A stretch of DNA of 64,000 bases, taken from the IMG/VR virus record IMGVR_UViG_3300032323_002779, positions 9,241 through 73,240 of that record; one strand, 5' to 3'. A program made the translations under genes and the position numbers. The notes under the pieces are model-generated. The model saw nothing but the letters and a program-made list of their open reading frames with translations. It was not told the DNA's origin and did not search any database. This document shows positions 1 to 31,131 of the stretch, in pieces (within the stretch, counting starts at the first letter, position 1; every line of letters begins with the position of its first letter). Source of the stretch: a virus.

Positions 1-70
1 GGATTAAAGTATTGTGGACATTGTTTCCGCCAAGCCAATTTGGACTGCTGATGTCAAATGTTCCTTTCAT
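1..70 (-). CDS. 5' end of a divergently transcribed gene running off the window (MKGTFDISSPNWLGGNNVHNTLI...)
   Basis: ATG at 70 on the minus strand, open to the window edge, A-rich upstream context and its own promoter. Confidence 0.55.
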   Translation of the reverse strand, partial: MKGTFDISSPNWLGGNNVHNTLI

Positions 71-102
71 AATTTTTTAAATTAATTATTAATAATTAGA
101 CA

Positions 103-135
103 CAAATGTAATTAATAATTTTTTACATTTACAAA
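103..135 (-). promoter_or_regulatory. Bacteroidota sigma70 promoter (leftward)
   Basis: Minus strand TTTG(135-132)-N21-TACATTTG(110-103), matching the -33/-7 consensus. Confidence 0.6.
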
Positions 136-226
136 TTATTATCTCATTTATGCTTTAGTAATTAAAAAGTTACGAAAAAAAATCAAACTAACGACTATCC
201 TAAATTATTATTATTTAAGATAAGAT

Positions 227-257
227 TTTGATAATTCGTTTCGGTTTATTATATTTG
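227..257 (+). promoter_or_regulatory. Bacteroidota sigma70 promoter (rightward)
   Basis: TTTG(227-230)-N19-TATATTTG(250-257), 19 nt upstream of ATG 277. Confidence 0.75.
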
Positions 258-276
258 GCACTTAATCCTTAATGCA

Positions 277-1224
277 ATGAAAGACAGTCATATAGATTAT
301 TCAGATTACTACGAAAATGGTGGAAAAGTAGATACCAAAATACCTTTAAGAATTAGAAAAGAAATTTATGATGCGGACGGCGAAAGACGCATCGATGAAA
401 GAGCGATAGAGGTTTTAACAGACTACGCTGAAAATTTACCACAAACCAAAGACTTAAATACCAACTCAAGAACAGGAAGTTATTTTCCTGAAAGACAAAG
501 GCTTCATCGGAAAATTATGGATTCTTTTAAAAAGGATTTGGTTTGTATTGAAAATGACGAACCAATCGCTATTCTTATGGGAGGTTCTCCTGCGAGTGGA
601 AAAAGCACATTCTTGAGAAAATACGCCCCGTATTTGCTAAAAGAAGAAATTTTAAAAGTTGATGCTGACGAGATTAGAGCAAAACTTCCTGAATACAGAG
701 GTTGGAACGCAACCCAAACACATCAAGAAACCAAAGATATTGTTAATACACTTTTGAGTGATAGAACTATTGGAATTCCTTGTAAGTACGATGTTATTTA
801 TGATGGAACTATGAATAGCACCAAGAGTTATTATCCGCTAATTGCCCTATTGAAAAAATTAGGGTACAAAATCTTTATCGTTTATATCGATAAGGTTGAA
901 GAAGAAGTTATTAAAAAACGTGCTTTAGAAAGGTACAAAAAGAGTGGTCGCTTCGTCCCTATGGCGGTAATAGATGATTTCTTTACAAGGGGCAAAAGCG
1001 CACTTAACGAACTAAAAGACAAAGCGGACGGTTATATGATTGTTGACGGGTCAGGCGGAGATTACAAAGTAATTGAGCGTGGGGGAATGAGATTGCCTAA
1101 ACGCCGTGCTTACTCGAAATTGGGAGTTCCTATTGCGCAGTTAGAGAAAGAAAGTAAAATGGAAAGTGGTGGGGCTACTGAAAGCAGAACGCCTGACTAT
1201 TTAAGAATGTTTTTGGGGAAATAA
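277..1224 (+). CDS. Zeta-toxin-family P-loop kinase with C-terminal PDYLRMFLGK tag
   Basis: GGSPASGKST Walker A, VDADEIR, YDGT and R..KSGRFVP motifs; bracketed by YYENGG and KMESGG. Confidence 0.75.
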   Translation: MKDSHIDYSDYYENGGKVDTKIPLRIRKEIYDADGERRIDERAIEVLTDYAENLPQTKDLNTNSRTGSYFPERQRLHRKIMDSFKKDLVCIENDEPIAILMGGSPASGKSTFLRKYAPYLLKEEILKVDADEIRAKLPEYRGWNATQTHQETKDIVNTLLSDRTIGIPCKYDVIYDGTMNSTKSYYPLIALLKKLGYKIFIVYIDKVEEEVIKKRALERYKKSGRFVPMAVIDDFFTRGKSALNELKDKADGYMIVDGSGGDYKVIERGGMRLPKRRAYSKLGVPIAQLEKESKMESGGATESRTPDYLRMFLGK

Positions 1225-1225
1225 A

Positions 1226-2122
1226 ATGAAAAACTTCGCCTTTATATTGGTAATAGAAAACATAAAAAACCCAAACTTAATTTCAAGTGATGGGGTTAAA
1301 AACAAGTATAAAGGTGCTTACAAAAAGATTTTTGATATTTTAAATGAAGATTTTGTATTTGTTGAATTTGAAAGCGAAGACGAAGAGTTGATTGGAAACG
1401 ATTTTTACTTGTATTTCAATCTCACTCCTGATTTAGAAAAATTACAACGAATAAGTAAAATTCCAAATGTGAAAATAATTAGTCAAAGATATGGGTTAGG
1501 CGGAAGAACGATAGCCCAAACTCCTGCTCCCAAGAAAGACCGTGTTTATGGAAGCGATTTGAACAAGAGTGATTCGTCAAAAGATTTGTCAAGCGCAAAA
1601 CTAATCAAGTTTGACGAAAAGACGCTTGAGGCTATTAAAAATAAGGTTCGGGAGCATAATGAGGAACACCCTGATAAGAAAATAAACTTGTCAAGTGCTA
1701 AAGCGGTTGTTCGTAGAGGAATGGGGGCTTATTCTAAATCCCACAGACCGACTATCAAGGGCGGTAAACCGAACAGTAGAGTTGCTTGGGGATTAGCAAG
1801 ATTAAACGCCTTTACATACAAAATTGTGAACGGCAAAAGTAAGTCGGGAAAATATAACCAAGACGATGATTTGATTGAGGAATTAGGTTTTAAAGTTGCT
1901 AATTATAAAAACGGCGGAGAAATGAAAAAAGACATACGTTGTATCAACTGCGGTTGGGAATGGAATAAAAAGGATTCCGAGTTATGGGATATGTATGTTT
2001 GTCACAAGTGCGGTTTTGACAACACAACTTTCTATACTTCTATTCCTGTTAATAATTATAGCAAGGGAGGTAAAGTAGAATCGAAAAACCCTGACTATTT
2101 AAGAATGTTTTTAGGAAAATAA
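1226..2122 (+). CDS. Modular hypothetical protein (RGMGAY..SHRP..WGLARLNAF module, CxxC...CxxC zinc ribbon) with PDYLRMFLGK tag
   Basis: ORF; modules separated by YGLGG, YKNGG and YSKGG. Confidence 0.7.
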   Translation: MKNFAFILVIENIKNPNLISSDGVKNKYKGAYKKIFDILNEDFVFVEFESEDEELIGNDFYLYFNLTPDLEKLQRISKIPNVKIISQRYGLGGRTIAQTPAPKKDRVYGSDLNKSDSSKDLSSAKLIKFDEKTLEAIKNKVREHNEEHPDKKINLSSAKAVVRRGMGAYSKSHRPTIKGGKPNSRVAWGLARLNAFTYKIVNGKSKSGKYNQDDDLIEELGFKVANYKNGGEMKKDIRCINCGWEWNKKDSELWDMYVCHKCGFDNTTFYTSIPVNNYSKGGKVESKNPDYLRMFLGK

Positions 2123-2126
2123 AGAT

Positions 2127-3119
2127 ATGAGCAACAAGTTATTAGCACCTAACGGCAAACCAACCAACCTAAATGCTATGCAGTACGAATTAGTTCGTAC
2201 CCCTGCGTTTAAAAAGTGGTTTGGGGATTGGGAAAACGACCCTGCTAATGCGAGTAAAGTTGTTGATGAAAATGGAGAGCCTTTGGTTGTTTATCACGGA
2301 ACTAATAGCGATTTTACAAAATTCAGTTTAGAAAGAGTTGGTTCAAATGTTGATTACGGAATGTGGGGAAGTGGATTTTACTTTTCTCCCTTGAGGTCAT
2401 TTAGCAAATATTACGGAAGTAAGATTTTAAAATTATTTTTGAATATTAGAAATCCGTTTGTTAGGAATCCAAATATTCAAGGAAGTACTGTTCAATTCAA
2501 GCCTGTATATGGTAAAGAAGCATCTCTTAATTTAAGAAATCAAATATTATCATATAACTATGATGGTGTTTTTCAATACGAATCGGGTCAAAAAAATCCG
2601 CTTATTCAAATTGTTGCGTTTCAGCCAAACCAAATAAAACTTGCTGACGGAACTAATAGGTTGTTTGATGCTAATTCAGACGACATTAGATTTGTAAAAG
2701 GAGGAAAAGTTAAAGGGGATTGTTATTTAGTTGCAGGTCAAATTGCAATGGAAATAAGAAGTAAAAAAATTGACTACAAAGGAACGCCTTATTTGGTTCA
2801 CGCAGAAGTTAAGCATAGTACTTTAGACGGAGTTCGTTTTGGACACGCTTTTATTGAGGACGATGAAAACGTTTATGATTTTTCAAACAACAGAGAAATT
2901 ATAATGCCAAAGCAATTATACTACTATTTTGGGGACATAAACCCAAAAGACAAAAAGAAGTATAGAAAATATACTTTCAAACAGGCAAGAGAAAAAATGT
3001 TAAGTACAGGCAATTATGGTTGTTGGGATATAGATGTTGAGTTTAATAGCGGAGGGGAAATAGTTAAGTCGTACAAAATGGAAATCCCCGATTATTTAAA
3101 AATGTTTTTAGGATTTTAG
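2127..3119 (+). CDS. ART-PolyVal-like ADP-ribosyltransferase domain plus Cys-His-Asp (transglutaminase/papain-like) domain, with PDYLKMFLGF tag
   Basis: FKKWFGDW..SKVVDENGEPLVVYHGT..GFYFS..YDG..F.PNQIK; then GDCY..GHAFIE..VYD after FVKGG. Confidence 0.7.
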   Translation: MSNKLLAPNGKPTNLNAMQYELVRTPAFKKWFGDWENDPANASKVVDENGEPLVVYHGTNSDFTKFSLERVGSNVDYGMWGSGFYFSPLRSFSKYYGSKILKLFLNIRNPFVRNPNIQGSTVQFKPVYGKEASLNLRNQILSYNYDGVFQYESGQKNPLIQIVAFQPNQIKLADGTNRLFDANSDDIRFVKGGKVKGDCYLVAGQIAMEIRSKKIDYKGTPYLVHAEVKHSTLDGVRFGHAFIEDDENVYDFSNNREIIMPKQLYYYFGDINPKDKKKYRKYTFKQAREKMLSTGNYGCWDIDVEFNSGGEIVKSYKMEIPDYLKMFLGF

Positions 3120-3122
3120 GTT

Positions 3123-3674
3123 ATGGAAAATTTAGAAATTTGGAAAGACATATCCGAATATGAGGGACGCTATCAAGTATCTAATATTGGTAGAGTAAAG
3201 TCTGTTGCAAGAATAGTTGAAAGTAGAAAAGGTGTTTTCGGTAATAAAAAAGAGATTGTTTTAAAGCCAACTAAAACTAAAAAAGGATATTTAAGAATTA
3301 AACTATGTAAAGTTTTTTGCGAAAAATCTATTGAGAATAATTTTTACATACATACTTTAGTTGCTAAATCATTTTTAGAAAACCCTTTAAAAAAACCTCA
3401 AGTTAATCACATTAACGGAGTTAAAGACGATAATAGAATTGAGAATTTGGAGTGGGTTACGGGTTCTGAAAATGTAATACATTCTCTTAATAATAATTTA
3501 AAAATACCACAGAAAGGTTCTGAACACGGAATGTCAAAACTTACGGAAAAGGAGGTTTTAGAAATAAGAGCAATAGGGAGGTCAAAAACATTAAAAGAAG
3601 TTTCTTTAAAATACAATGTTGACCAATCTTTGATTAGTTCAATCTTGTTAAATAAAATTTGGAATCACGTTTAA
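3123..3674 (+). CDS. NUMOD4-HNH homing endonuclease with C-terminal HTH
   Basis: EIWKDI..YEGRYQVSNIGRVKS (NUMOD4); VNHINGVKDDNRIENLEWVT..EN (HNH). Confidence 0.9.
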   Translation: MENLEIWKDISEYEGRYQVSNIGRVKSVARIVESRKGVFGNKKEIVLKPTKTKKGYLRIKLCKVFCEKSIENNFYIHTLVAKSFLENPLKKPQVNHINGVKDDNRIENLEWVTGSENVIHSLNNNLKIPQKGSEHGMSKLTEKEVLEIRAIGRSKTLKEVSLKYNVDQSLISSILLNKIWNHV

Positions 3675-3688
3675 AAAAACAATTTAAA

Positions 3689-6600
3689 ATGCGAAAAGGC
3701 AAAATAAAATTAACTCAAAAAGAAGCAGAAAACACACCCGCAGGAGGTGTTGTTGTTGGTAAAAGAGATGGTCAAACAATGATTTATGATGACGCTTCTC
3801 TTGGAGGGTATTTTGTAGGTAAACTACATCGTGACGGGGGTATCAAAATGATTAATAAATCAACGGGACAACCTTTGGAAGTTCAAGGTTCGGAGGTCAT
3901 TATTACCGCTCCTGCCGTAAACGACCCTACTAAAAAAGAGTTTGAGGGCAAGATGATGACTAATCGTGAAATACTTTCTAAAATTAATTCGGACGGTGGT
4001 GGCGTGTCTTTTGCGGACGGAGGCGATATTCCCGCTAAAATCCATACAACTGATTGCGAATACAAATTTGGCGGAAAGTTGGTTAAAGACACCGACATAG
4101 CGCACTCTTTAGGTATGAACTCTACCTTGAAAAAAGGAAAACAACAATTTTCTTCAGGAGATACAACTTATGACGTAGATGGTATTTATAATGCTATTAA
4201 AAAGGGCAAACTTCGCTTAAAAACTAAAGAGATTGAAACTTTCCCGATGAAGTACCCTGTGTATGACAAAAATTACGCAGAAAACCACAAAATTGATTTC
4301 AGAAAACCAAACGGGATTACTGTTCGCACAGAAAGTGGCGAAGAGGTTTTGATTGACGGTAATCATAGAATGAATGATGCCTACCTAAAGGGCAGAAAAA
4401 CTATGAAAACTTATTACATCGAAGACCCAAAACAAATAGCCAAGTTTGCCAAAAAGAACAAATTTGAGTTAGGCGGGGAAAATAAAGTTGGCGGTCATTT
4501 ATCAAAAAACAAATCATTGAAGCAAATTGCTGAAATGCACAATGTTTCTTTGGCTCACATTAACGAAGAACTTGCGAAAGGTTTGGAGGTAGAGAAAGAA
4601 CATTTTTCTGATTTTAAAGAGCGCACAAGGGTTGCTAAAGACCATTTAGTAGAAAACCCTAACTATTACACTATTCTTGCTAAAGCAGGGCTTAAAATGG
4701 GTGGACGTGTTCAAAGACAAGAGTTGGTTGAGAAATCGAAAAAAGGCGATACCCCTGCAAGAGATTTGAATAATTACAATGACATTATGGATTTAGAAGC
4801 AGACGGAGCGGTAGGTGGAGATAGTGGTTTGGCTTTTGCTGATGGTGGACAGGTATCTGATTTGAAAATAGGAGATGTTCTTGAAATAGATTCAAATAGC
4901 AAGTATAGCGGACTGTCGTTGTATGTGCCGAGTGAAAACAACACTTATTTTTTTAACAACGGAACTCAATTAAAATTAGTTAAGTTAAATAGCGGGGGAG
5001 ATGAAGATTATAAGTCTTTTAGTTTAGAACAAGCGGGAGAAAAAATAATTGTTTCAATCGCAAACATAAGTTTGCAAAAAATGATTAATGAAAAATCCTT
5101 AAAAAAGGTTTCTTTTGCTGATGGCGGAATAACGCCGTATGATGCTAATGAAGAGGGGGATTCAGTTGATATTGTTGAAGACGAATTCGCAAAAGGCGGG
5201 GTGGTTTATGATACCACAAAACCAAAAATTGAAAAAGTAACTATAAAAGAAACAAGGTTTGATGCGAGTTCTCCTGTTTATTCAGGTAGCCGACAAAACA
5301 TCGTAGGTAAAATTGCTAACAATGTTTCTGAATTGCAACAAATTGTTTCTGACTACATAGGTTCAAGTCCTAAAGAAGAATACGATTGGATTAGTTTTTA
5401 TGTGAATGATGCCTCAAGAGGTAAATATTATGTAGATTTAAACAAAGACAAGAAAAACACGGTAAAAAATGTAAACCCCGAAACGCTTAATTCTGTAAAC
5501 TTTAAAAGAGTAATAGATGCTAAAGATTATTTAGTGAAAAACTACGATTGGACTGACTTTTTTGAGGGCGCAAGTAATATACCTGCTCGTAGAGGCAAAA
5601 CTGTTGAAGGAGTTAACGTGGTTTACTTTGATGTTGACGGAAAAACACGTCTAATTCAAGATGTCAGAAATCCATTTCAACTTTATAATTTTTTAAAGAA
5701 GTTATATAATGACGGTAGTCGTTATGTAGAATTACAACCAAGCGGTTATGGAATTGTTAAACAATTCCCTAAAATTATTCCAATCACTAATTCTGCTTGG
5801 CAAGACATACTTTTTGTAAAACCTGAAAAAGAGGCGGTTGAAGCAATTATGAACACACTTGCTTTTGCTCTTTTCCCTAAATTAGATTTTTCTAAATTTA
5901 ATAATAGGTCTAATATCCCTGCTTCAACTTCTGCTTACAAAGCAGACAAAGAGGTTCAGTCAGTTTTGATTAAATACGGAAAAGGCAACGAATATACCGC
6001 ATTGAACGGGGAATCTCTTTTATCTATGATGCAAGATATTTGGAACTCAAATGGCAAAACAGTAAGAACGATTCAGATACAACCTAAAGGCAGGATAGCG
6101 CAGTTGTCTGTTTTAAAAATAATTGACTTGGTTGAAAAACCTTTTAATATTGAGTATGAAATTAATCCTGATAAAATTACACTTAATGAATTAAGAGATA
6201 AATTATCAAAAGGAGAAGAATGGTACAATGACTTGGATTGGACGAGTTTCTTTAAAGAAAACACTCCTGCCTCTTCAACTTCTGTTTCATCTCCAAAAAA
6301 AGAAAATGTTGTTCAATCAGTAAGGTTAAATTTTGAAAAACAAGACGGAACGCCATATAATAAGATAACGGCAAATTCGGGCAGAGAACTCTTTAAAGAA
6401 CTTGAATATGCTGAAAATAATTGGTTGACTGCTGAAGATGATTTTTTCAGATTTCAGTTCATTGCTTATTATACGGATAGTAATGGCATTGGTAAATCTA
6501 TGTCCGAACAATTTAATTTTGGAGATAAATTTTTTCTTCCAAGTAATTGGTCTTACGACAGTTTTAGAAGATTAGTCTATTATGATTGGTTTGGTAATAA

Positions 6601-9352
6601 GTTAGATTTTAGCGAGTTTTTCCATAAAACATACATTGCTTCGAGCGAAAGAGAAGTTAGCAAAGTTACGTTGACTTACGATACAGGTGTTTTACTTAAA
6701 GAAATTTGCTATAACGGGTCTGAATTGTTTGAGGCTTACAAATTAATTGAAGAAATGGCAGAGGGCGGTTCTTTGGAGGTTAATGTTACTTTAAGCGGAA
6801 AAGATAAAAGCGGACAATTTTTTGAAACTCAAGGTACTCCTCAAGAAGTTGGTCAGGGAGGTTTTGAGCCAAGTCAAATTTATTCTTTTGAGGAATTTGA
6901 AAAATATTTTAAAAGTTTGTATAGGCGGTTTGATTTTAATAATTTCTTTAGCGGAATTACAGTTCCCAATAGTAGTGGAAATTCTGCTCAATCAACCGTA
7001 AATAGTTCGCCAATAGCAAATGCCAATAAAATATTAGGTCAAGACTTATATAACTCTAAAATTTGGATTGGAAATGATTTAAAATTAAGAGATAAGGTTT
7101 TTGAAAAACTTGTGGATTTAGGATTTGTAATTGACCGCCAATATGACGGGGATTTTGACGTGGTTGTAACTATTGACGATTACAATTTCTATGTAAGTCA
7201 AGTTTCAAGAGAGGATTTTGAAAAAAACAAATTGTTAAAAGAAATATTTCCGTCAGATTTAGGGATTGATGTTCCTGCTTCTGCTAAAGGCAAACCAATA
7301 GTTGAAAAGTTATACACCGCTAATGGAGATGTTTTTTCTAATATCGAACAGGTTAGATATTTCCTCGATAACAGAACTGCTTTTGTTGATAAAGTGTTCT
7401 TTAACGTAAATTCTTTAAATAGTCAAGATGTTTTTAGGGTTGAACTAAACGATGTAAATAGTGATTATTACTATAACAAAAGTGCAGGTTTAGAGCCTAA
7501 ATATAGAAAACTGCAAGATATATTTGAGTTGAATCCTGCTTTTAAAAATTATGATTGGGAGGAATTCTTTTCGTTTTTTTCAAATACACAAACGCCTACA
7601 ACGTCAAGTAATCCTAATAACATAGAACCTTATGATGCTTACCGAATTACTCTTATTTGGAAAGATAATTCAGGAAAGGAAATTATAGACTCTATGGATA
7701 TTTTTAATGGAGTTAGTGGAGCATTTTTCATATCTCGATTAAAAGAAATAGAAGAGCAGTCACAAGGTAAAGATGTAGAGGTTATAATAAGAGCATTTGC
7801 TAATGATGACGAGGGCAATCAATTTGAAAAAAATGATTATTTTACTATTGGAGAAATTTGGTTTAAGCCAAGCACAAGAACAAATGAGGAAATAAAATCA
7901 GTTGTTGAAGAATGGATTGACGGAGTTAATTTTGACAAGTATTTTGCAGATGTGATTCCTTTAAGCGGAAGCCAATCATCTGCTACTCAATACAAGCCTA
8001 TCGACTTATCTCAAACTAAAATTTGGATTGGAGATAATAGAGATGTTAGCAAACAGATACAGGAAAGAGTGTTTGAACTTGGTTGGTCTTGGAAAAATTT
8101 AGCATTGCCTACAAGTCCAAATTATATGTTTCAACCTGCTCTTTATTTTCATAGCGACAAAGACATAAGTTACGGAGATGATAAGCAGTTGTTTGATAGC
8201 AATAAAGATTTCAAGGAAATTACTTTAGAAGACTTGTTTGCTAAAATCGAACCTGCACAAATCACACAAACGCCTACTGTAAGTGGTGTGTCAGGCTCGG
8301 TTAAGGAAATTAACAATTTGAAAGAAGCCGTTGATGTTTTAGAGGGAATCGCTTCACAAGCATCTCAAAAATACAATACCAAAAAATATGAGGAAAGTTT
8401 AGAGTTGTTAAAACAAGTAAAAGAGGAATACGCACTTGCTTTAAGTTTTACTCCTGAAAGTTCATTTATGTATGAGCGAATTGAGTTGATGAAGAAAATA
8501 ACCGAAATCCAAAAGGAAATCACAAGGATTACCGAGTTGAAAAACGGCGGAGCGTACTATATTTTGTCCAAAGTAATTGAAAGATTGAACAGAGGGGAAA
8601 ATTGGAAAGAACTTGGAAACGGCGAGATAATGGTTAATGAAGTTCCTCAACAAGAAATCGATACGGTTATTTATACCGAAAAATTCAAAAATTGGTTTGG
8701 AGATTGGGAACAAGCATTAATTACAAAAGAGTATGATTATGTGAGTAAAGCATTAACCGAAAGTGGAAAGCCTTGTGTGATGTATCACGGAGCGAAACGT
8801 ATTAAATTCTCTTATCGACAAGTTAGCAACGGGGTTGTTTATTTGGCTGAAAACAGAAGTTATGCGGAATGGTTTAGCGCAAATGAAAGTCCTTATCAAA
8901 AGCAGGGGGATTATTTAACGCAATGTTTCGTAAATCTTAAAAATCCGATTGATTTAACTCCTTTTGGGGTAGAGGAAGTTGATTTAAGAGATATTATACA
9001 ATACATTGATGCTTTATACCCACTTGCTAAAATCTATGATGTGTTGCCTCCAAATACGGCTATGGCAATTATGAATAATCAGTTGATTGGAAGAAACTTT
9101 AGGGCTTGGTACATAATTAGACAATTCCCTGAATTAAACAAGCACATAAGAGATAATACAACTTATGATGGATTTATTTATTATGAGAACAACCCAAGCG
9201 ATATGATTAGGACTGAATCAGGGGAGTTTGTAGAGAACGTAACCAAAGCAACTGCCGTGTTTAATTCAAACCAAGTAAAATTGGTAGATGCGATGTTGTT
9301 TGACAGTTCTTTAGACGATTGGAGATTTGAAACAGGAGGAAAAGTAAATTAA
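3689..9352 (+). CDS. Large polyvalent protein (~1887 aa): ParB-like, DUF5661-like, internal repeats and C-terminal ART-PolyVal-like domain
   Basis: ATG 3689 preferred over TTG 3659; LIDGNHR; GLEVEKEH..AKDHLVENPNYY; FKNWFGDW..MYHG; about 9 GG motifs. Confidence 0.75.
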   Translation: MRKGKIKLTQKEAENTPAGGVVVGKRDGQTMIYDDASLGGYFVGKLHRDGGIKMINKSTGQPLEVQGSEVIITAPAVNDPTKKEFEGKMMTNREILSKINSDGGGVSFADGGDIPAKIHTTDCEYKFGGKLVKDTDIAHSLGMNSTLKKGKQQFSSGDTTYDVDGIYNAIKKGKLRLKTKEIETFPMKYPVYDKNYAENHKIDFRKPNGITVRTESGEEVLIDGNHRMNDAYLKGRKTMKTYYIEDPKQIAKFAKKNKFELGGENKVGGHLSKNKSLKQIAEMHNVSLAHINEELAKGLEVEKEHFSDFKERTRVAKDHLVENPNYYTILAKAGLKMGGRVQRQELVEKSKKGDTPARDLNNYNDIMDLEADGAVGGDSGLAFADGGQVSDLKIGDVLEIDSNSKYSGLSLYVPSENNTYFFNNGTQLKLVKLNSGGDEDYKSFSLEQAGEKIIVSIANISLQKMINEKSLKKVSFADGGITPYDANEEGDSVDIVEDEFAKGGVVYDTTKPKIEKVTIKETRFDASSPVYSGSRQNIVGKIANNVSELQQIVSDYIGSSPKEEYDWISFYVNDASRGKYYVDLNKDKKNTVKNVNPETLNSVNFKRVIDAKDYLVKNYDWTDFFEGASNIPARRGKTVEGVNVVYFDVDGKTRLIQDVRNPFQLYNFLKKLYNDGSRYVELQPSGYGIVKQFPKIIPITNSAWQDILFVKPEKEAVEAIMNTLAFALFPKLDFSKFNNRSNIPASTSAYKADKEVQSVLIKYGKGNEYTALNGESLLSMMQDIWNSNGKTVRTIQIQPKGRIAQLSVLKIIDLVEKPFNIEYEINPDKITLNELRDKLSKGEEWYNDLDWTSFFKENTPASSTSVSSPKKENVVQSVRLNFEKQDGTPYNKITANSGRELFKELEYAENNWLTAEDDFFRFQFIAYYTDSNGIGKSMSEQFNFGDKFFLPSNWSYDSFRRLVYYDWFGNKLDFSEFFHKTYIASSEREVSKVTLTYDTGVLLKEICYNGSELFEAYKLIEEMAEGGSLEVNVTLSGKDKSGQFFETQGTPQEVGQGGFEPSQIYSFEEFEKYFKSLYRRFDFNNFFSGITVPNSSGNSAQSTVNSSPIANANKILGQDLYNSKIWIGNDLKLRDKVFEKLVDLGFVIDRQYDGDFDVVVTIDDYNFYVSQVSREDFEKNKLLKEIFPSDLGIDVPASAKGKPIVEKLYTANGDVFSNIEQVRYFLDNRTAFVDKVFFNVNSLNSQDVFRVELNDVNSDYYYNKSAGLEPKYRKLQDIFELNPAFKNYDWEEFFSFFSNTQTPTTSSNPNNIEPYDAYRITLIWKDNSGKEIIDSMDIFNGVSGAFFISRLKEIEEQSQGKDVEVIIRAFANDDEGNQFEKNDYFTIGEIWFKPSTRTNEEIKSVVEEWIDGVNFDKYFADVIPLSGSQSSATQYKPIDLSQTKIWIGDNRDVSKQIQERVFELGWSWKNLALPTSPNYMFQPALYFHSDKDISYGDDKQLFDSNKDFKEITLEDLFAKIEPAQITQTPTVSGVSGSVKEINNLKEAVDVLEGIASQASQKYNTKKYEESLELLKQVKEEYALALSFTPESSFMYERIELMKKITEIQKEITRITELKNGGAYYILSKVIERLNRGENWKELGNGEIMVNEVPQQEIDTVIYTEKFKNWFGDWEQALITKEYDYVSKALTESGKPCVMYHGAKRIKFSYRQVSNGVVYLAENRSYAEWFSANESPYQKQGDYLTQCFVNLKNPIDLTPFGVEEVDLRDIIQYIDALYPLAKIYDVLPPNTAMAIMNNQLIGRNFRAWYIIRQFPELNKHIRDNTTYDGFIYYENNPSDMIRTESGEFVENVTKATAVFNSNQVKLVDAMLFDSSLDDWRFETGGKVN

Positions 9353-9358
9353 AAAAAA

Positions 9359-10705
9359 ATGGAACAAGAAAAACAGTTATTAGCGAGTTTATTAGCGTAT
9401 AATCAAATTCCTTTTGGAGATTACAAAAATTATGTAACTACCGATAGAGCAGTTGATTTATTTGTTCAGGGGACACCTAAACAGGAAATTGACAAAATGT
9501 TCGTTTCGGCAGGTTTACCCGTACCAAAAGACGAATACCAAGCGTCACAAATATTTCAAAGAATTTATAATGAAATTTCTAACGTAGATAAAACTTCCTA
9601 TTCGGGAACTTATCGTCAAGAGAAAGAGGAGGAACAACTACACAATCTATTAAATTCTTTACACGAAAACCCGCACACAATACAGGTGGGCGGAAGCGGA
9701 GTAAATATGCCTAATAGTGGAAATAGTTTCTCTAATATTTTAAATCAAATTGAAAGTGGCTTTGTTTCAGGTCAAGGTCAAGGTCAAGGACAAGGACAAG
9801 GTCAAGGTCAAGGTCAAGGTCAGGGACAAGGACAAGGTCAGGGTCAAGGTCAAGGACAAGGTCAGGGTCAAGGTCAAGGTCAGGGTCAAGGTCAAGGTCA
9901 AGGACAAGAACAGGGTCAGGGTCAAGGAGAAAGCGGAGGAGAAGAGGGAGGAGAAAGAGAGCAAGAGCAAGGTCAAGGGCAGGGTCAAAGTCAGCAGGAG
10001 CAAGAGCAAGAGCAACGGGAAAATGATTTAGAAAGAGAAATCAGACTTTGTAGTGAGCAGATTGCATCTTTGCAAATCACTTTAGCGGAACTTGAGGCTA
10101 AAAAGAAAAAAACACAAGCCGAACAAGACAATATTGAAAGTTTGGTAAAGCAAATAGCCGATTTAGAGAACCAAATTTATATAATGATGGGGGCTTTGAA
10201 TAATACTGAAGTATTGCAGGTTAACGACCAACAAGACTACGAATTGCCTTTGTATATGTTTGCCAATGTCAATAAACAATTAGGCGATTTAAAGTTTCAA
10301 ATAGCAAAAAAATCTAATGATATTGAAAATCCTTATTTGAACGAAGTTGAAGATAAAAAAAGACGCAACGATTTAATTATCGATGTGGTGCTAACTAACT
10401 TAAAATATTACACTTACCAAAAATTAAAAAACGAAAATAAATTGTTAGATTTGTACCTTACGGAAAAAGATTTAAAAGACCTTTTGATTAAATTCGGTAA
10501 AGGAAATTCAGTCGATAAAGTCGTTTTGAAAGTCAATGTGGCAGGTGCAGATGATTTAGTTATTGACAACGAAACAAGTATAGATTCTTTAGTTTATCAG
10601 TTGAACACAATTGAGAAAAACGTAGAAACTCTAAATAAAGATAAAAACATAGAACTTATTTTTACTGAAATGAAAAACGAATTACTAAATAAATTTATTA
10701 TATAA
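9359..10705 (+). CDS. Hypothetical protein with (GQ)n linker and coiled coil
   Basis: 448-aa ORF; stop overlaps the AAA+ start (TAATG). Confidence 0.75.
   Translation: MEQEKQLLASLLAYNQIPFGDYKNYVTTDRAVDLFVQGTPKQEIDKMFVSAGLPVPKDEYQASQIFQRIYNEISNVDKTSYSGTYRQEKEEEQLHNLLNSLHENPHTIQVGGSGVNMPNSGNSFSNILNQIESGFVSGQGQGQGQGQGQGQGQGQGQGQGQGQGQGQGQGQGQGQGQGQGQGQEQGQGQGESGGEEGGEREQEQGQGQGQSQQEQEQEQRENDLEREIRLCSEQIASLQITLAELEAKKKKTQAEQDNIESLVKQIADLENQIYIMMGALNNTEVLQVNDQQDYELPLYMFANVNKQLGDLKFQIAKKSNDIENPYLNEVEDKKRRNDLIIDVVLTNLKYYTYQKLKNENKLLDLYLTEKDLKDLLIKFGKGNSVDKVVLKVNVAGADDLVIDNETSIDSLVYQLNTIEKNVETLNKDKNIELIFTEMKNELLNKFII
9770..9928 (+). repeat. 6-nt tandem repeat encoding (GQ)n, about 23 uninterrupted units
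   Basis: GGTCAA/GGACAA/GGTCAG units with synonymous variation. Confidence 0.95.
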
Positions 10706-12117
10706 TGGAAGATAATACAAGAGAAATAGAAAAATACCAAAGAATCATCGACAACAACGACCCCGATAGTGTTGCGGTCAAAGTTGCGAAAGAACGGTTA
10801 GCCCAAATTCAACAACGTAAAAAAGTCGATGTTGACAAAGATTTTTCAGGAGTAGTTACTTCTATAAACACCTTAATCGATAAGGTTTACAATAGTAATG
10901 CGAGTTTGTCTAATAGAGATATTGACAATGCTATTAACGAAAGACTTAAAAAGTTCAAGATTAAAGAAACCAATCTTTCTCCTGAACTTCAAAAGTTAAT
11001 TGGGGAAACGAAAACTATTGAGGTAAAAGTAAATAACGTAAAAACTTTTGGTGGTAAAACAGGCGAAGACCGAAGATTAATCGATGTTTTATTATCTGAC
11101 TATGAGGCGCAAAACAACGTGTATTTGTACGGGGAGGCGGGAACAGGTAAAACTTTCGTAGCAGGTATTATTGCTGACAGAATTAACTACAAGTTGATTA
11201 CCTTGAACTGTAACCAATATACTTCTCCTTTGGATATTTTAGGGGGACAAACAATTGACGGTTATCAAGAGGGTAGGTTGACCGAAGCGTGGGGGAATAT
11301 CGATTTAGGATTAAATGCCAAAAATCAGCCTTACGAGGGTGCTTTATTGCTTTTGGACGAGTTGCCTAAAATCGACCCTAACACCGCAGGTTTATTGAAT
11401 GACGCTTTAGCGAAAATCAAAGATGCCGTCAAAGTAGTTGAATTGGCTAACGGAAGCAAAATAGAAGTTCAACCTACAATATCAAACGGTAGAGGGCAAA
11501 GAATTTCAAGAGCAAAGATTTTCATTATTGCCACAGGTAACTCTTTGCTGAACGAAGCAAACAAAGACTACGAGGCGAATTTTAAACAGGACTTGTCGTT
11601 GCAAGACCGTTTTGCGGGAAGTTGTTACAGAATTACATACAACTACAAATTTGAGTATGAAAAAATAATGACAAACATATCTTCTGACAGTTTCCCTGAC
11701 GGAACTATTATCGATATGACCTTTGCGTTTAACTTCTTGGCTCAATTGCGTATGAAAATTGTAGAGAAGAAATTGACAGGTATTGCTTTCGTTTCAACTC
11801 GTTTAATGATTGTAGCGAGAGATACTTTTATTGCTTACCTTGTGAACAGAGAGCAAACACCAAACGTTATACCAAGACCTAAAAAGTTAAGCGAGGTTGT
11901 TAAGTCGTTCTTGTCTTTGTTTTCACAACAACAAAAAGAAACAATTGAGCAGGAATTGTCGGCAGAATTTAAAGCGTTTTACGACACCTGTGACGTCAAA
12001 GATGTAACGCCTTTGGCGCAATTAAATACGGCGACTGACGAAGAAAAAGAAACTGCTAAACTGATTATTGAAGAAGCAGAAAAAAAATACGCTGACATTA
12101 GCGCAATTCCGTTATAA
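10705..12117 (+). CDS. MoxR/CbbQ/CobS-type AAA+ ATPase
   Basis: LYGEAGTGKT Walker A, LLLLDE Walker B, IATGN sensor I, QDLSLQDRF arginine finger, VSTR sensor II. Confidence 0.85.
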   Translation: MEDNTREIEKYQRIIDNNDPDSVAVKVAKERLAQIQQRKKVDVDKDFSGVVTSINTLIDKVYNSNASLSNRDIDNAINERLKKFKIKETNLSPELQKLIGETKTIEVKVNNVKTFGGKTGEDRRLIDVLLSDYEAQNNVYLYGEAGTGKTFVAGIIADRINYKLITLNCNQYTSPLDILGGQTIDGYQEGRLTEAWGNIDLGLNAKNQPYEGALLLLDELPKIDPNTAGLLNDALAKIKDAVKVVELANGSKIEVQPTISNGRGQRISRAKIFIIATGNSLLNEANKDYEANFKQDLSLQDRFAGSCYRITYNYKFEYEKIMTNISSDSFPDGTIIDMTFAFNFLAQLRMKIVEKKLTGIAFVSTRLMIVARDTFIAYLVNREQTPNVIPRPKKLSEVVKSFLSLFSQQQKETIEQELSAEFKAFYDTCDVKDVTPLAQLNTATDEEKETAKLIIEEAEKKYADISAIPL

Positions 12118-12120
12118 GAT

Positions 12121-13710
12121 ATGATAAATGCAACTCTTGCAAATAGATTAGAATTTTACTTCTACAATTCTCAAAGAGATTTGTTAAAAGAAGTTGAAGA
12201 CTATTGGTTGAATAATCCAACAGAGGTGGATTCAATCAATAGTTATTCTACATCTGATAGAGATATTCGGAATTCTCCAAGTTTTTACGGCTACGACCCT
12301 AATAGCCCTAAAACTCTTGCGGAGCAGTTTTCTTATGACGAGATTAAAGCATTTAGCGATATGCCTTTGTTGGAAAGCACTTTAAATAGTTTTTCTGATA
12401 TTAGAAAAAACTTGGACTTGGGAGGCGATTTTGATTCAGCAAGAATGAAGTTTACTTCCTTGCCTAAAGGGGTTTTTAATTTTGGCGTTGCCTCAAAAGG
12501 TTTGTACAGAAAAGTTGAGTATTATGACGAAGCAAACGATGTTGTAGTCGATAGCAACCTTGTTTTGCAAAGCGAAATAAATAATACCCCGTATTACATC
12601 TTTAAAGGAAACAGAGTTTATTTAAGAAAGCAACAAGAGGGTACTTCTTTGATTGAAAAATATTGCAAAGACGTAAAAGTTGAATATTCAGAGGTTCATA
12701 AATTGAGTTTGCCTTTTAAAGACGGTAAAATTTATAATGGTTGTGGATTTGAGGTAGATAAAGAAAAAGGTATTTACGCAAAATTGAAGTACGCTACCAC
12801 TACCAAAAAAGTCTTTATGTATAGAGAGAAACTTGGTGGCGGAATTTCGCCTTACGTTGATTTATTCATAGTTGTAGGAGGTCTTGGAGATGTTGATACA
12901 GAGAATATGTTGGCTAAAAACTTACCGACATTTATCGTTGCTGACATTTTGGAAAAAGCGGGTGTTAAGGTTAGGATATATGGGGTTAGAGGGTATGATA
13001 CACCTGAAAACACATTGGTTTTTTTACCTTTTGCTATAAAAGAGTACGGAGAAACGCTCGACTTTGGAAATCTTGCCTCTTTTACTTCTGACATACGTTT
13101 TTTCAGGGTAAATCTTTGGCGCAGTTTGGCTACTGTTAGAAGAATGGCTCAAAAGGCAAATGACCCAAATAGCACGAATTATCCTTACGGGTATGGTTCT
13201 ACTTTATATGGGTTTAAAAACGGTCAGCGTGATGACTTATACGATGCTTTTCAAATGTTTAAAAATTGGGTTTTTAATCAAAAAGGCTCTGTAAGAAATA
13301 CAACAAAAATTAACGACAAAGGATTAATGATTCTTGGTGGTTTAAGAAATTTGAGCAGTACCGATAGGTTGACAAGTACAAATCAAGCACAGACTTTTCA
13401 AAAAATAAAAGAAGAGGTTTATAGAATTTTGGATTATGTAGGTATGTTGTTGACTAACAACCCCTCAAAATTCATTCAAAATATTTACATCAGGGAGAAA
13501 GAAGACCCTAAATACGCAAATTTATCCGATGCTTATGTAAAGCAGGTAATTACAGGATATTTGTCAGGTTTAATAAGGGATAATCTTCAAATCGTTCCAA
13601 ATTTAGGCGACCCAAGATTAAAGGTTTACGAAACGCCTACTGATGAAGTTTTAAGAATCAAAGAAAGAACAGACGACTTGATTAAGGCAATCGAAAAAAC
13701 ATTAAGGTAA
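12121..13710 (+). CDS. Hypothetical protein, probable vWA-like partner of the AAA+ ATPase
   Basis: Position directly after a MoxR-type ATPase; alpha/beta C-terminal half (VDLFIVVGG..ADILEKAGVKVRIYG); no clear MIDAS motif. Confidence 0.45.
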   Translation: MINATLANRLEFYFYNSQRDLLKEVEDYWLNNPTEVDSINSYSTSDRDIRNSPSFYGYDPNSPKTLAEQFSYDEIKAFSDMPLLESTLNSFSDIRKNLDLGGDFDSARMKFTSLPKGVFNFGVASKGLYRKVEYYDEANDVVVDSNLVLQSEINNTPYYIFKGNRVYLRKQQEGTSLIEKYCKDVKVEYSEVHKLSLPFKDGKIYNGCGFEVDKEKGIYAKLKYATTTKKVFMYREKLGGGISPYVDLFIVVGGLGDVDTENMLAKNLPTFIVADILEKAGVKVRIYGVRGYDTPENTLVFLPFAIKEYGETLDFGNLASFTSDIRFFRVNLWRSLATVRRMAQKANDPNSTNYPYGYGSTLYGFKNGQRDDLYDAFQMFKNWVFNQKGSVRNTTKINDKGLMILGGLRNLSSTDRLTSTNQAQTFQKIKEEVYRILDYVGMLLTNNPSKFIQNIYIREKEDPKYANLSDAYVKQVITGYLSGLIRDNLQIVPNLGDPRLKVYETPTDEVLRIKERTDDLIKAIEKTLR

Positions 13711-28528: not shown

Positions 28529-29023
28529 ATGGAAACAATTAATGATTTATTAAGAGCGTTGGACAACAAAGTACCTGCTTCAATTGCTAAAAGATTAGAC
28601 GGTTTAAGTAAACTGAATGATAAATTAGTATTAGCAAGACAGGAAAATAGTGAAAATCCAACAGAGGAATCGCAAGAGAAATTAGAACAGATTATTGAAT
28701 TCATCTCGGACACCCAAGAGGATTTAAGAGAAGATTTGGCTGAACTTGTTGCTAAAAAAAGAGAGGCGGACGCAAAAGCCCGTCAAATTGCTAAAAACAA
28801 AGCAGATGCAGAGGCTAAAAAATTAGAGGAAGCAGAAGCCCTTAAAGCAAAGGAAAAAGAAGAATTAGAGCAGAAAGAATTATTGGAAAAACAAGCACTT
28901 GAGGCTACTCCAACAACTGACCCAAAAAAGAAGTCAGGAATTGGTTGGGGAGGTTTAGTTTTAGGAGGTGCGTTATTAATTCTTTCCGCAGGTGCAATAA
29001 ACTATTTTGGAAAAAAACGATAA
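28529..29023 (+). CDS. Coiled-coil protein with C-terminal TM anchor
   Basis: K/E/A-rich helix, then GIGWGGLVLGGALLILSAGAINYFGKKR. Confidence 0.8.
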   Translation: METINDLLRALDNKVPASIAKRLDGLSKLNDKLVLARQENSENPTEESQEKLEQIIEFISDTQEDLREDLAELVAKKREADAKARQIAKNKADAEAKKLEEAEALKAKEKEELEQKELLEKQALEATPTTDPKKKSGIGWGGLVLGGALLILSAGAINYFGKKR

Positions 29024-30489: not shown

Positions 30490-31131
30490 ATGGCTTTAAT
30501 ATACGAAGATAAAGTACCCGCTTCTTATAGAAGTGGTTTTGTAAAAAAAGTATCTGAAATTTCAGATAAGATAGGTATTAACCCTAATTGGTTAATGGCT
30601 ATTATGTATTTTGAAAGCGCAAGAACGTTTAGTCCGTCAAAAGGCAATGATATTGGTTGTTACGGTCTTATTCAGTTTTGTCCTGATAGGGGTAAAAATT
30701 ACAAAACTGTCAACGGTAAGCGATACTTAATGTCGGATATTGCTAAAATGGATTATTCCGAGCAATTAGACTTGGTTTACGAATATTACAAGCCATATAC
30801 AGGAAAACTAAAAAGTTACACCGATACATATTTTGTAACATTTTTTCCTTTGGCTATCGGTAAGCCTGATGATTGGATTATTCAGGGCGGAGGTTTTACC
30901 GCAAGACAAATATACAATTCAAACCCTGCTTTTCATCAAGTAAAAGATGGTAAAATTAGGGTTTGGGAAGTAAAGAAAAAGATATTAGAAAAACTACCAA
31001 GCGAATGGGTTAATGAGGGGAGCGTTGGTTTAGCGGTTAAAGCATACAAAAATTATATTGCAGTTGGTATTTTGTCAATTGTAGCGGGGTTAACATTATT
31101 TTATTACACTTATGATAGACGCAGTAAATAA
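30490..31131 (+). CDS. Lysozyme-fold/SLT-like enzyme with C-terminal TM anchor
   Basis: WLMAIMYFES..F.P, GLIQF, EQLD.V..Y; hydrophobic tail. Confidence 0.75.
   Translation: MALIYEDKVPASYRSGFVKKVSEISDKIGINPNWLMAIMYFESARTFSPSKGNDIGCYGLIQFCPDRGKNYKTVNGKRYLMSDIAKMDYSEQLDLVYEYYKPYTGKLKSYTDTYFVTFFPLAIGKPDDWIIQGGGFTARQIYNSNPAFHQVKDGKIRVWEVKKKILEKLPSEWVNEGSVGLAVKAYKNYIAVGILSIVAGLTLFYYTYDRRSK

Follow-up and report, generated by a model that had tools for sequence, protein, structure and literature searches.

The window, a stretch of 64,000 nucleotides from the IMG/VR virus record IMGVR_UViG_3300032323_002779 (positions 9,241 to 73,240 of that record), opens with three adjacent genes, ORF1, ORF2 and ORF3, all on the plus strand and just upstream of the gene for a polyvalent giant of 1887 amino acids. 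The three products end in nearly the same short peptide, here called the tag, which follows a Gly-Gly (GG) pair and a linker. The features of the cluster are as follows.

277..1224, plus strand: ORF1, 315 aa, a free-standing P-loop kinase module of the Zeta-toxin type, tagged at its C-terminus (Pfam, ORF list)
1168..1224, plus strand: terminal unit of ORF1, made of GG (1168-1173), linker A-T-E-S-R-T, core P-D-Y-L-R-M-F-L-G-K (1192-1221) and stop
1226..2122, plus strand: ORF2, 298 aa, three modules meeting at GG junctions, then the tag; the modules recur in relatives
2066..2122, plus strand: terminal unit of ORF2, made of GG (2066-2071), linker K-V-E-S-K-N, core (2090-2119) and stop
2127..3119, plus strand: ORF3, 330 aa, ART-PolyVal module (residues 1-192), Cys/His module 'Cpep' (residues 196-312) and tag
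3051..3119, plus strand: terminal unit of ORF3, made of GG (3051-3056), a 10-aa linker, core P-D-Y-L-K-M-F-L-G-F (3087-3116) and stop
3123..3674, plus strand: HNH/NUMOD4 homing endonuclease, inserted ahead of the giant gene and past the last of the tagged ones (Pfam)
3689..9352, plus strand: polyvalent giant of 1887 aa, counted from an ATG at 3689 (Pfam DUF5661, ART-PolyVal)

The kinase module of ORF1 is matched by the Pfam family Zeta_toxin (PF06414, E 3.7e-25, residues 90-254), and the N-terminal module of ORF3 by ART-PolyVal (PF18760, E 4.5e-22); the PHROG matches of ORF3 lie within profiles 1664-2900 aa long. A GG junction at nucleotides 2700-2705 separates ART-PolyVal from Cpep, a conserved module with 80-91% identity across four loci. 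In the ESM Atlas, the Cpep part gave a lead (0.83) towards YunG-like families, which was left unused. ORF2 has no match in Pfam or PHROG; its modules, O2N (1-92), O2M (93-218) and a Cys4 zinc ribbon (219-283), are bounded by internal GG junctions at nucleotides 1499-1504 and 1913-1918, and are found apart and in different orders in relatives. The endonuclease is matched by NUMOD4 (1.6e-15) and HNH_3 (1.1e-9) in Pfam; several relatives, tagged and tag-less alike, also have an HNH gene just ahead of the giant one.

The giant itself has no tag and ends three residues past a GG; the ART-PolyVal match at its C-terminus is weak (E 3.3e-6, 28.3 bits, below the Pfam cut-off of 31.2). Polyvalent-type domains of the cluster are ART-PolyVal, in ORF3 and weakly in the giant, and Zeta_toxin, in ORF1. 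The many-domain polypeptide of this virus record is the neighboring giant, and the tagged ORFs hold one to three modules each. Judged by sequence, ORF1, ORF2 and ORF3 encode effector modules that stand alone and belong to the polyvalent-protein repertoire; the virus is an uncultured one of Bacteroidota-type bacteria, and a Sediminibacterium-type host is one lead. In the GenBank/INPHARED phage collection there was no DNA match to positions 1-12000 of the window and no protein match to a 364-aa ORF or to the N-terminus of the giant, and ORF1 found distant Zeta-domain matches only. The 364-aa ORF fell into unnamed viral clusters of the ESM Atlas, which were left unused. ORF3, a 2781-aa giant, a 271-aa ATPase and profiles of a 233-aa protein had no significant sequence match among solved structures.

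A six-frame regular expression search for P-D-Y-L-[RK]-M-F found three matches only in the window, on the plus strand at 1192, 2090 and 3087, each standing two residues and the stop codon before the end of its ORF. The initial annotation had described a common C-terminal tag after GG on three unrelated proteins, and these are exactly its three positions. BLASTP agrees that the protein bodies are not homologous: the notable match between ORF1 and ORF2 covers the C-terminal 18 aa only (78% identity), that between ORF1 and ORF3 the 9-aa core only, and all remaining HSPs among the three have E > 0.1. In the complete record of 73,240 bp, a degenerate pattern gave three forward, zero reverse and zero control matches. 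The GG is separated from the tag by 6 residues in ORF1 and ORF2 and by 10 in ORF3; in the virus family, the terminal unit is about 16 aa long and consists of a semi-conserved linker, x-T-E-S-x-T, followed by P-x-Y-L-[KR]-M-F-L-G-K.

At the DNA level, where the tag with its stop codon takes up 33 nt, copies 1 and 2 are alike at 31 of 33 bases, both differences being synonymous, as had been annotated; copy 3 is like them at 24/33 and 26/33 bases, respectively. In class 1, the most frequent of several tag classes (see below), the variable positions are the polar ones (-9, -6, -2 and -1), all 97 proteins have the same L-7 and L-3, and the hydrophobic moment at 100 degrees is 0.40. A divergent tag, P-D-Y-V-R-L-L-F-K-W, shows the same pattern with other codons. 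The AF2 model of ORF1 has residues 307-312 in helical conformation, with pLDDT of about 30 there and a mean pLDDT of 49, and is too poor to show how the tag folds.

Relatives were gathered with the N-terminus of the giant as query, and its N-terminal ~120 aa are kept in all 23 IMG/VR loci so obtained. Five of the 23 have one to three tagged ORFs immediately upstream of the giant; the other 18 have no tagged ORFs in the available upstream DNA, and their giants end a few residues past a GG, untagged. A metagenome scan gave 42 pattern matches in 31 loci. Twenty-six of these (15 loci) lie exactly two residues before a stop, are preceded by GG and occur in module ORFs, and the remaining 16, which have none of those properties, are chance matches. 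Up to seven tagged ORFs follow one another in a single metagenome contig. The viral, metagenome and genome collections together provided 47 tagged ORFs, in all of which the tag is C-terminal by the rule of selection; the 26 genuine metagenome matches had not been selected by position. At least seven different modules come last before the tag (Zeta, ART, zinc ribbon, Cpep, X1, X2 and a Zeta extension), and modules are shuffled among tagged ORFs. The tag is thus kept in homologues and present on further types of cargo, as a search of related genomes proposed in the initial annotation had been meant to establish.

Among five related whole records, matches with at most three mismatches were confined to the cluster: three of the records had 3, 3 and 2 copies, and the other two, with divergent tags, had no match; ten tag-less relatives had no genuine tag matches. 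As a control for chance, 79 viral ART-PolyVal loci were screened for at least two ORFs per locus that are alike in at least seven of the last nine residues, and the three positive loci all belong to the tagged-virus family. ART-PolyVal resides in ORFs of more than 1000 aa, i.e., inside giants, in 70 of those 79 loci. Untagged free-standing modules also exist, namely O2M-only ORFs in loci L011, L027 and L028.

In the tagged-virus family, a hydrophobic-x-x-G-G junction closes every module. Between fused modules, the GG leads straight into the next one, with no tag; in a separate polypeptide, whether of one module or several, the last GG is followed by the terminal unit. Split and fused versions of a junction between two ART modules differ by one clean 66-nt indel, which contains the linker, the tag, the stop, a spacer, an ATG and three codons. 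There are 38 [FY]-A-[DKNES]-G-G motifs, confined to three giants; among the papers listed in which Y-A-D-G-G, F-A-D-G-G, Y-A-K-G-G or F-A-K-G-G occurs, none is on phages, judging by the titles. The tag is portable and strictly C-terminal, and only unfused products have it; its classes are discrete and lineage-specific, and it is acquired or lost in the form of a cassette.

Among the best 120 free-standing ART homologues, 54 have the class 1 tag, 40 have class 2 (P-D-Y-L-K-F-L-I-G), nine have class 3 (ending in Y-[ST]-I-G-G-L) and two have class 4; the remainder have a C-terminal TM segment (two proteins) or other or truncated ends (13 proteins). Zeta homologues carry class 1 in 57 cases and class 2 in 15. 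The distance from the GG is near-fixed in classes 1-4, and classes 3 and 4 look strand-like, not helical. In a tree of 69 ART bodies, from which the last 18 aa had been removed, classes 1 and 2 interleave, with well-supported branches requiring at least nine changes each, and close sister pairs have different tag classes. No contig in the DNA set analysed mixes classes; tag class is therefore a property of the virus, which is what would be expected of a label matched to one receptor. At least four discrete classes are discerned by the protein searches, and class tracks virus lineage and not cargo phylogeny. Concerted class switching is also expected from gene conversion within a genome.

Synonymous differences between the tags had been taken in the initial annotation as a sign that the peptide is what is conserved. 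This argument fails, because synonymous sites vary less in the tag core than in the gene body: in 11 distinct Zeta coding sequences, third-position entropy is 0.11 in the core vs 0.31-0.91 in any 15-codon window of the body, and the P, Y, L, R and F codons of the tag are one codon each, whereas invariant L, F, Y and P columns of the body are single-codon in just 17, 0, 7 and 33% of cases. Constraint on the DNA itself, or gene conversion, is therefore at work as well, and much of the apparent conservation of the peptide may be due to such conversion, to a DNA cassette that has spread recently or to a role at the RNA level. Low entropy and single-codon usage, the clean indel between split and fused forms, the rampant shuffling of modules and the concerted change of class would all suit a recombination substrate, in which the nucleotides 'linker-tag-stop-ATG' serve to split, fuse and shuffle modules and the peptide is a passenger; small ORFs next to a large polyvalent gene have been likened to recombining cassettes in passages of PMC5512222. 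We nevertheless hold this to be unlikely, in that the observed changes sit at polar positions of the peptide and the hydrophobic ones never change, divergent forms hold the peptide pattern despite different codons, and classes 3 and 4, whose peptides are unrelated, are placed likewise, with constant spacing from the GG. Furthermore, the small ORFs lie upstream of the giant and have their own tightly coupled starts, unlike promoterless orphan cassettes, and recombination has occurred at fused junctions without any tag DNA. Most improbable of the alternatives is that the tag region serves the start of the next, translationally coupled gene, as an A/U-rich leader (with no use of Shine-Dalgarno) or as a nascent peptide by which termination is paused to allow re-initiation. 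The next ATG does lie 1-7 nt past the stop in the copies checked (one exception is at about 35 nt), the tags are built from the most A/T-rich common codons, and the last two codons differ between the final tag before the giant or HNH gene, mostly F-L-D-L, and the earlier ones, F-L-G-K. However, GC3 of the last 10 codons is just slightly lower than in the bodies (0.24 vs 0.29, 40 tightly coupled genes), the D codon is mostly GAC, not GAT (codon table, 43 copies), and most of the coupled pairs in the record do without a peptide of this kind. Conserved RNA structure at the tags was rejected, as the three regions share no fold (z of -2.6, -0.4 and +1.1). Joining of ORFs by frameshift or readthrough was rejected on the ground that relative frames of neighbors differ between genomes, and a +1 frameshift at A-A-A-T-A-A-A as a general device on the ground that neighbors in L006 share a frame.

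The tag presumably bears a likeness to the MinD sequence itself, and a C-terminal amphipathic, lipid-binding helix of the MinD type might park the free effectors on a host or viral membrane, with a possible route into a membrane-containing virion. The hydrophobic moment of class 1 and the polar nature of its variable positions agree with this, and so do the two proteins among the best 120 ART homologues that have a hydrophobic segment of ~18 aa and basic residues after the GG. In the record, 25 ORFs have a terminal TM-like segment with basic residues after it, and TM-like segments are found in 43 of its 86 ORFs, vs 110 of 540 in control loci. However, the share of such ORFs in eight relatives is 23-35%, vs 20% in 45 unrelated loci, and the idea of a membrane-containing virion is toned down accordingly. 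A literature search on large viruses of Bacteroidota with a membrane turned up PMC5894146 only. Passages of PMC8155659 present the membrane targeting sequence as a C-terminal amphipathic helix, too weak as a single copy, and by that MinD precedent a lone 9-aa helix would be weak. Lipid-binding helices usually keep amphipathicity and not identity, whereas the hydrophobic residues of the tag are invariant within a class; the linker is semi-conserved too, and the strand-like look of classes 3 and 4 is against a helix. We regard membrane targeting as unlikely. Clamp-binding motifs and C-terminal degrons usually have the format of a short hydrophobic C-terminal peptide past a flexible linker, which is also the format of the tag; the clamp-binding consensus starts with Q, which the tag lacks. 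A host-directed peptide that sets the lifetime or site of the effector after injection, either as a degron or as a binder of a host hub such as the sliding clamp or a chaperone, is very unlikely, since fused modules and the giant go without the tag, which is thus not needed for effector action as such, and tag class follows virus lineage.

The reading that fits best is that of a sorting tag, as the initial annotation had proposed: the unit is C-terminal and portable on unrelated cargo, is kept in homologues and occurs on further types of cargo. We give a little less than an even chance to the view that the tag is a portable peptide for docking or sorting, which stands in for covalent fusion and probably serves virion loading. 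Enzymes that are normally fused in one giant injected protein are here made separately, with the same short peptide on each. Under the sorting-tag reading, the terminal unit would be an address label, a short and probably amphipathic docking peptide; one common receptor would bind it, and the free modules would thereby reach the destination of the covalently linked modules of the giant, most likely the virion, for delivery with the DNA. We infer receptor binding, the identity of the receptor, virion loading, the helical conformation and any later removal of the tag. Packaging of tagged modules in the virion would be analogous to that of known polyvalent proteins, as portrayed in parts of PMC5512222.

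The 95 ORFs of the record were compared with four tag-bearing and four tag-less complete relatives in the search for a tag-specific gene, one that all of the former have and none of the latter; no credible candidate emerged, the sole exception being a weak acetyltransferase-like match. A MoxR-like AAA_5 ATPase (10705-12117), named in the initial annotation as a possible partner, is unlikely to be an obligatory one, because a record with class 2 tags that is rated 100% complete has no homologue of it. Complex prediction paired a 233-aa core protein (39693-40394; 94-row alignment) with the C-terminal 40 residues of ORF1 (11-row alignment); it scored 0.00 twice, was run without controls and weighs neither way. 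The AF2 model of this core protein has pLDDT of 87.1; Foldseek ranks the CPMV small coat protein first (E 9e-4, TM 0.32-0.36), and the VIA matches of the model, in which viral jelly rolls are mixed with non-viral sandwiches, have a best Z of 6.8 (rmsd 4.5, 121 aligned), none reaching 8. A core protein of 261 aa has an H-E-x-x-H motif, read from sequence only. Scaffold, portal, HK97-type capsid and encapsulin genes were not recognised, the ORFs scanned with Pfam and PHROG having no match to capsid families, and no head maturation protease was recognised in the virus.

A broader scheme, which we regard as distinctly unlikely, is a programmable cargo system, in which modules would be either strung at hydrophobic-x-x-GG junctions or freed with an exchangeable tag of at least four classes, read by a co-evolving virion receptor; the GG pairs, among them the 38 motifs confined to the three giants, would be sites of a viral protease, the giants would be polyproteins, and the tags would be clipped after loading. 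Processing at Gly-Gly-X takes place in African swine fever virus and adenovirus.

Should the tag prove to be an address label, it would offer a ready-made, portable signal of ~16 aa that loads arbitrary proteins into or next to virus particles. It would moreover reveal how a polyvalent giant can be divided among separate genes with co-delivery preserved, and would make the hypothesis of polyvalent-protein packaging directly testable. The virus group is widespread and uncultured, and its most conserved protein alone accounts for 695 representative clusters. The universal GG junction, together with the fission/fusion cassette, amounts to a concrete mechanism for rapid shuffling of anti-host effectors.

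Several known systems invite comparison. In CdiA/Rhs polymorphic toxins, a short conserved coding motif marks the border of recombining variable modules; that motif precedes the variable toxin tip, and orphan cassettes have no starts of their own. The tag, in contrast, stands at the end of each product, and the small ORFs all have starts of their own, coupled to the stop before. The tagged ORFs are set apart from orphan cassettes by lying upstream of the giant, by their own ATG 1-7 nt past the previous stop and by the lack of tag sequence in the giant. An analogy to polymorphic toxin orphan cassettes is drawn in parts of PMC5512222 (Iyer, Burroughs, Anand, de Souza, Aravind 2017), where small ORFs with polyvalent-type domains beside a large one are also noted. 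The polyvalent proteins presented in that paper (PMC5512222) are like the cargo described here in their domains, i.e., ART-PolyVal, a Zeta-type kinase and many uncharacterised modules, and a giant adjoins our cluster. The terms 'linker', 'C-terminal motif' and 'split' occur zero times each in the main text of PMC5512222, so that the C-terminal tag on free modules and the universal hydrophobic-x-x-GG junction are undescribed in that main text. A literature text search for the strings D-Y-L-R-M-F, D-Y-L-K-M-F, Y-L-K-F-L-I-G and Y-L-R-M-F-L-G had no match.

The cargo-loading peptide of encapsulins is short and C-terminal, follows a flexible linker on unrelated cargo enzymes, and docks inside a protein shell. 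The tag shares the C-terminal position after a linker on unrelated cargo; the motifs are unrelated, and the tag, unlike the encapsulin peptide, alternates with covalent fusion to a giant. The capsid targeting sequence (CTS) of phage T4 lies at the N-terminus, from which the prohead protease removes it, whereas the tag is C-terminal; the likeness is that unrelated effectors have one short sequence in common. According to passages of PMC3012670, T4 internal proteins are diverse, unrelated effectors with only this short targeting sequence in common, which loads them into the head. Membrane targeting sequences of the MinD/FtsA type, as described in parts of PMC8155659, are C-terminal, amphipathic, transplantable and about 10 residues long; the tag differs from them in being near-invariant, in falling into discrete classes and in having a semi-conserved linker.

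The source record (73,240 bp, 35% G+C), whose long ORFs lie nearly all on the plus strand, contains three copies, and no more, of the tag, the C-terminal peptide P-D-Y-L-[RK]-M-F-L-G-x that follows a GG junction and a short linker. They close three genes (ORF1 to ORF3) upstream of a very large polyvalent protein, here called the giant:

277-1224, plus strand: ORF1, Zeta-toxin-type P-loop kinase (PF06414, E 3.7e-25), ending in P-D-Y-L-R-M-F-L-G-K
1226-2122, plus strand: ORF2, with an end identical to that of ORF1, P-D-Y-L-R-M-F-L-G-K
2127-3119, plus strand: ORF3, ART-PolyVal domain first (PF18760, E 4.5e-22), ending in P-D-Y-L-K-M-F-L-G-F
3123-3674: HNH/NUMOD4 homing endonuclease, between ORF3 and the giant
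3689-9352: the giant, 1887 aa, DUF5661 and a C-terminal ART-PolyVal domain
10705-13710: MoxR-like AAA_5 ATPase with a partner of 529 aa that matches DUF7192 weakly, both found after the giant in most relatives
15150-23495 and 23508-27761: farther downstream, second and third giants of 2781 and 1417 aa

GG precedes each tag by 6 to 10 residues. In ORF3 the ART-PolyVal domain is followed by Cpep, a module of some 115 aa that is highly conserved and contains Cys and His residues; ORF2 has no match in Pfam or PHROG. ART-PolyVal and Zeta-type kinases are hallmark domains of polyvalent proteins, which phages and conjugative elements encode and for which packaging and delivery with DNA were proposed by their discoverers (PMC5512222). 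Of 79 other viral loci that carry an ART-PolyVal homologue, 70 have it inside an ORF longer than 1000 aa. The HNH/NUMOD4 gene recurs just upstream of the giant in seven related loci (L011, L012, L014, L016, L039, L058 and L185), in genomes with and without tagged modules. The start of ORF1 (277-360) encodes a junction-like Y-Y-E-N-G-G-K-V-D, resembling the GG junction ahead of the ORF2 tag, and has the appearance of a leftover from an upstream fusion.

When the three proteins were compared by BLASTP, the C-terminal 18 aa of ORF1 and ORF2 and a 9-aa core of ORF1 and ORF3 aligned, and nothing else notable. An unbiased chance test looked for ORFs of one locus that have seven or more of their nine terminal residues in common; of 79 viral loci, three gave a positive result, each of them from this virus family. 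The initial annotation is confirmed in that three otherwise unrelated proteins share a tag, and not by chance.

We scanned IMG/VR, JGI metagenomes and a species-representative genome collection with degenerate tag patterns, and fetched additional loci around homologues of the giant's N-terminus. Five of the 23 loci found via the giant have one to three tagged ORFs directly upstream of it; the other 18 have none in the upstream DNA covered (less than 2 kb in two of them), and their giants end a few residues past GG, without a tag. The metagenome scan gave 42 pattern matches in 31 loci. Of these, 26 (15 loci) lie exactly two residues before a stop with GG ahead, in ORFs of Zeta, ART or zinc-ribbon type, and 16 are scattered chance matches. 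One 10.7-kb contig carries seven consecutive tagged ORFs, with a conserved gene upstream of them and the HNH gene and the giant downstream. In the genome_contigs scan one of nine loci was genuine: L185, a contig of 132 kb placed in the bin of a Sediminibacterium sp. MAG, which gives a lead to the host group. It has the same cluster and gene order, namely Zeta (tag variant S-D-Y-L), the ORF2 module O2M plus zinc ribbon (tag), ART (tag), HNH and giant. Matches with at most three mismatches were confined to this gene cluster in five related whole records, and ten tag-less relatives yielded one match, at three mismatches, that does not encode the tag. The tagged-module feature is real, modular and widespread inside one uncultured virus family.

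We mapped 47 tagged ORFs to reference modules. Zeta, several ART subfamilies, Cpep, the ORF2 modules O2N, O2M and zinc ribbon, two further modules (X1 and X2), a NUDIX module and unassigned stretches are freely shuffled among them. All modules close with hydrophobic-x-x-G-G. Immediately past this GG comes either the next module, if the protein is a fusion, or, at polypeptide ends, x-T-E-S-x-T and then the tag. Exceptions are short O2M-only free ORFs, which end untagged in three loci. At least seven kinds of module occur last before the tag. An ART/ART junction that is split in locus L006 and fused in L008 aligns base for base save one 66-nt indel, made of linker, tag, stop, spacer codon, ATG and three codons. 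Taken together, the variety of last modules and this indel indicate that the tag is a mini-module, gained and lost as a cassette along with gene fission and fusion. The last tag before the giant or HNH gene usually ends in F-L-D-L (L006, L008, L035, L042, L058, L060), and earlier tags in F-L-G-K; the start region of the next gene may shape the final two tag codons.

Stand-alone ART proteins, used as a profile, retrieved 2209 homologues (99-450 aa), and the ends of the best 120 were typed. Class 1, P-x-Y-L-x-M-F-L-x-x, the type in the window, accounts for 54; class 2, P-D-Y-L-K-F-L-I-G, for 40; class 3, ending in [FW]-x-Y-[ST]-I-G-G-L, for nine; and class 4, ending in Y-W-Y-K-G-L-F-x, for two. 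Two more have a terminal hydrophobic stretch, about 18 residues long, plus basic residues, and 13 have other ends, mostly on truncated proteins. The distance from GG is near-fixed (mostly 16, 15, 12 and 12 residues for classes 1 to 4), and non-ART last modules also precede classes 2 and 3. The best 120 Zeta homologues include 57 with class 1, 15 with class 2 and a few near variants. In a quick maximum-likelihood analysis of 69 ART bodies, each trimmed of its final 18 residues, classes 1 and 2 interleave on the tree: well-supported branches force at least nine changes for each, and class differs within several well-supported short-branch sister pairs. No contig in the DNA set collected here is of mixed class. 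Tag class therefore goes with the virus lineage rather than with the cargo.

Across 11 distinct Zeta genes, which share 82-93% of their nucleotides, the tag uses one codon each for P, Y, L, R and F, while in the body only 17, 0, 7 and 33% of invariant L, F, Y and P columns are single-codon; third-position entropy is 0.11 in the tag versus 0.31-0.91 in 15-codon body windows. The same fixity holds in 43 canonical tag copies, whose flanking G and T codons vary freely. Neither general codon bias nor the small drop in GC3 at coupled gene ends (0.24 versus 0.29) explains it. Single-codon use and low entropy point to an extra nucleotide-level constraint or to homogenisation, and they undercut the earlier argument that synonymous differences mark the peptide as the conserved entity, since synonymous sites vary less in the tag than in the body. 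A function of the peptide is argued for by other observations. Substitutions fall on polar positions (-9, -6, -2, -1); all 97 class-1 proteins have L-7 and L-3, a set in which P, Y, M and F are fixed by the selection rule. The divergent tag of L011 keeps the peptide pattern with other codons, unrelated peptides take the same slot in other lineages, and the tag regions have no shared RNA fold.

The best-supported reading, which we hold tentatively at somewhat less than even confidence, is that the tag is a sorting tag; the synonymous-site argument of the initial annotation is weakened by the nucleotide-level conservation. On the simplest account of its presence on free modules and absence from fused ones, the tag would stand in for a covalent link and bring free modules to wherever the giant goes unaided, most plausibly into the virion. 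The tag may possibly be removed at GG. Gene-content comparison of relatives found no tag-specific gene, and the AAA_5 ATPase is dispensable in one complete class-2 genome, which lacks both it and the 529-aa protein. Two rival readings are kept at clearly lower odds: the tag may target lipid and not protein, or the cassette may count mainly at the DNA level. A more radical reading, held at low probability, is polyprotein processing. The three giants contain 38 copies of [FY]-A-[DKNES]-G-G, where shuffling predicts 0.07 and none of 200 shuffles gave more than 1; the record's other 92 ORFs have none. These copies could be sites for a protease or repeats of a docking motif. They often form tandem pairs about 10 residues apart and are spaced at about 50-100 aa, like beads on a string.

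As to the virion, no HK97-type capsid or portal was recognised in the scanned ORFs (Pfam, PHROGs), and the sole terminase signal was a weak PHROG match of a 271-aa P-loop protein (36538-37353; Walker A G-R-K-G-C-G-K-T, Walker B-like L-L-L-I-E-D). Kept in all eight relatives and weakly matching AAA_22, it may be a small packaging ATPase. The family's most conserved protein (233 aa, 39693-40394; 59-98% identity in eight relatives, 695 representative homologue clusters at E<=1e-3) is predicted with confidence as a jelly-roll beta sandwich (AF2 pLDDT 87). Its best structural matches include coats of plant and insect viruses as well as proteins of PR772/PRD1, FLiP, phiCjT23 and PM2. At Z <=6.8 they are not decisive, since the capsid jelly rolls of viruses are not set apart from other sandwiches; it may be a capsid protein. 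A 261-aa core protein (45132-45917; 45-94% identity, eight relatives) without a Pfam match is a candidate metalloprotease by its H-E-F-A-H (H-E-x-x-H) motif. By a crude hydropathy test 43 of 86 ORFs of this record have a TM-like segment (by eye, 18 are N-terminal anchors, and 25 are C-terminal anchors with basic residues behind them), for example 28529-29023, 30490-31131, 40489-40917, 45929-46876 and 52213-52677. The share is 23-35% in eight relatives and 20% in 45 unrelated viral loci, so that the excess is clear for this record only. IMG/VR flags inverted terminal repeats in the related records G009, G013 and G014 (loci L014, L026, L027).

The tag motif strings were not found in the literature searched, and the main text of the polyvalent-protein paper mentions no such tag or junction (PMC5512222). 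The T4 CTS and the encapsulin loading peptides are cargo-targeting peptides, and the tag is proposed to work likewise. It falls outside both families, as the CTS is N-terminal whereas the tag is C-terminal, and no encapsulin shell was found here; its cargo is of the polyvalent-protein kind.
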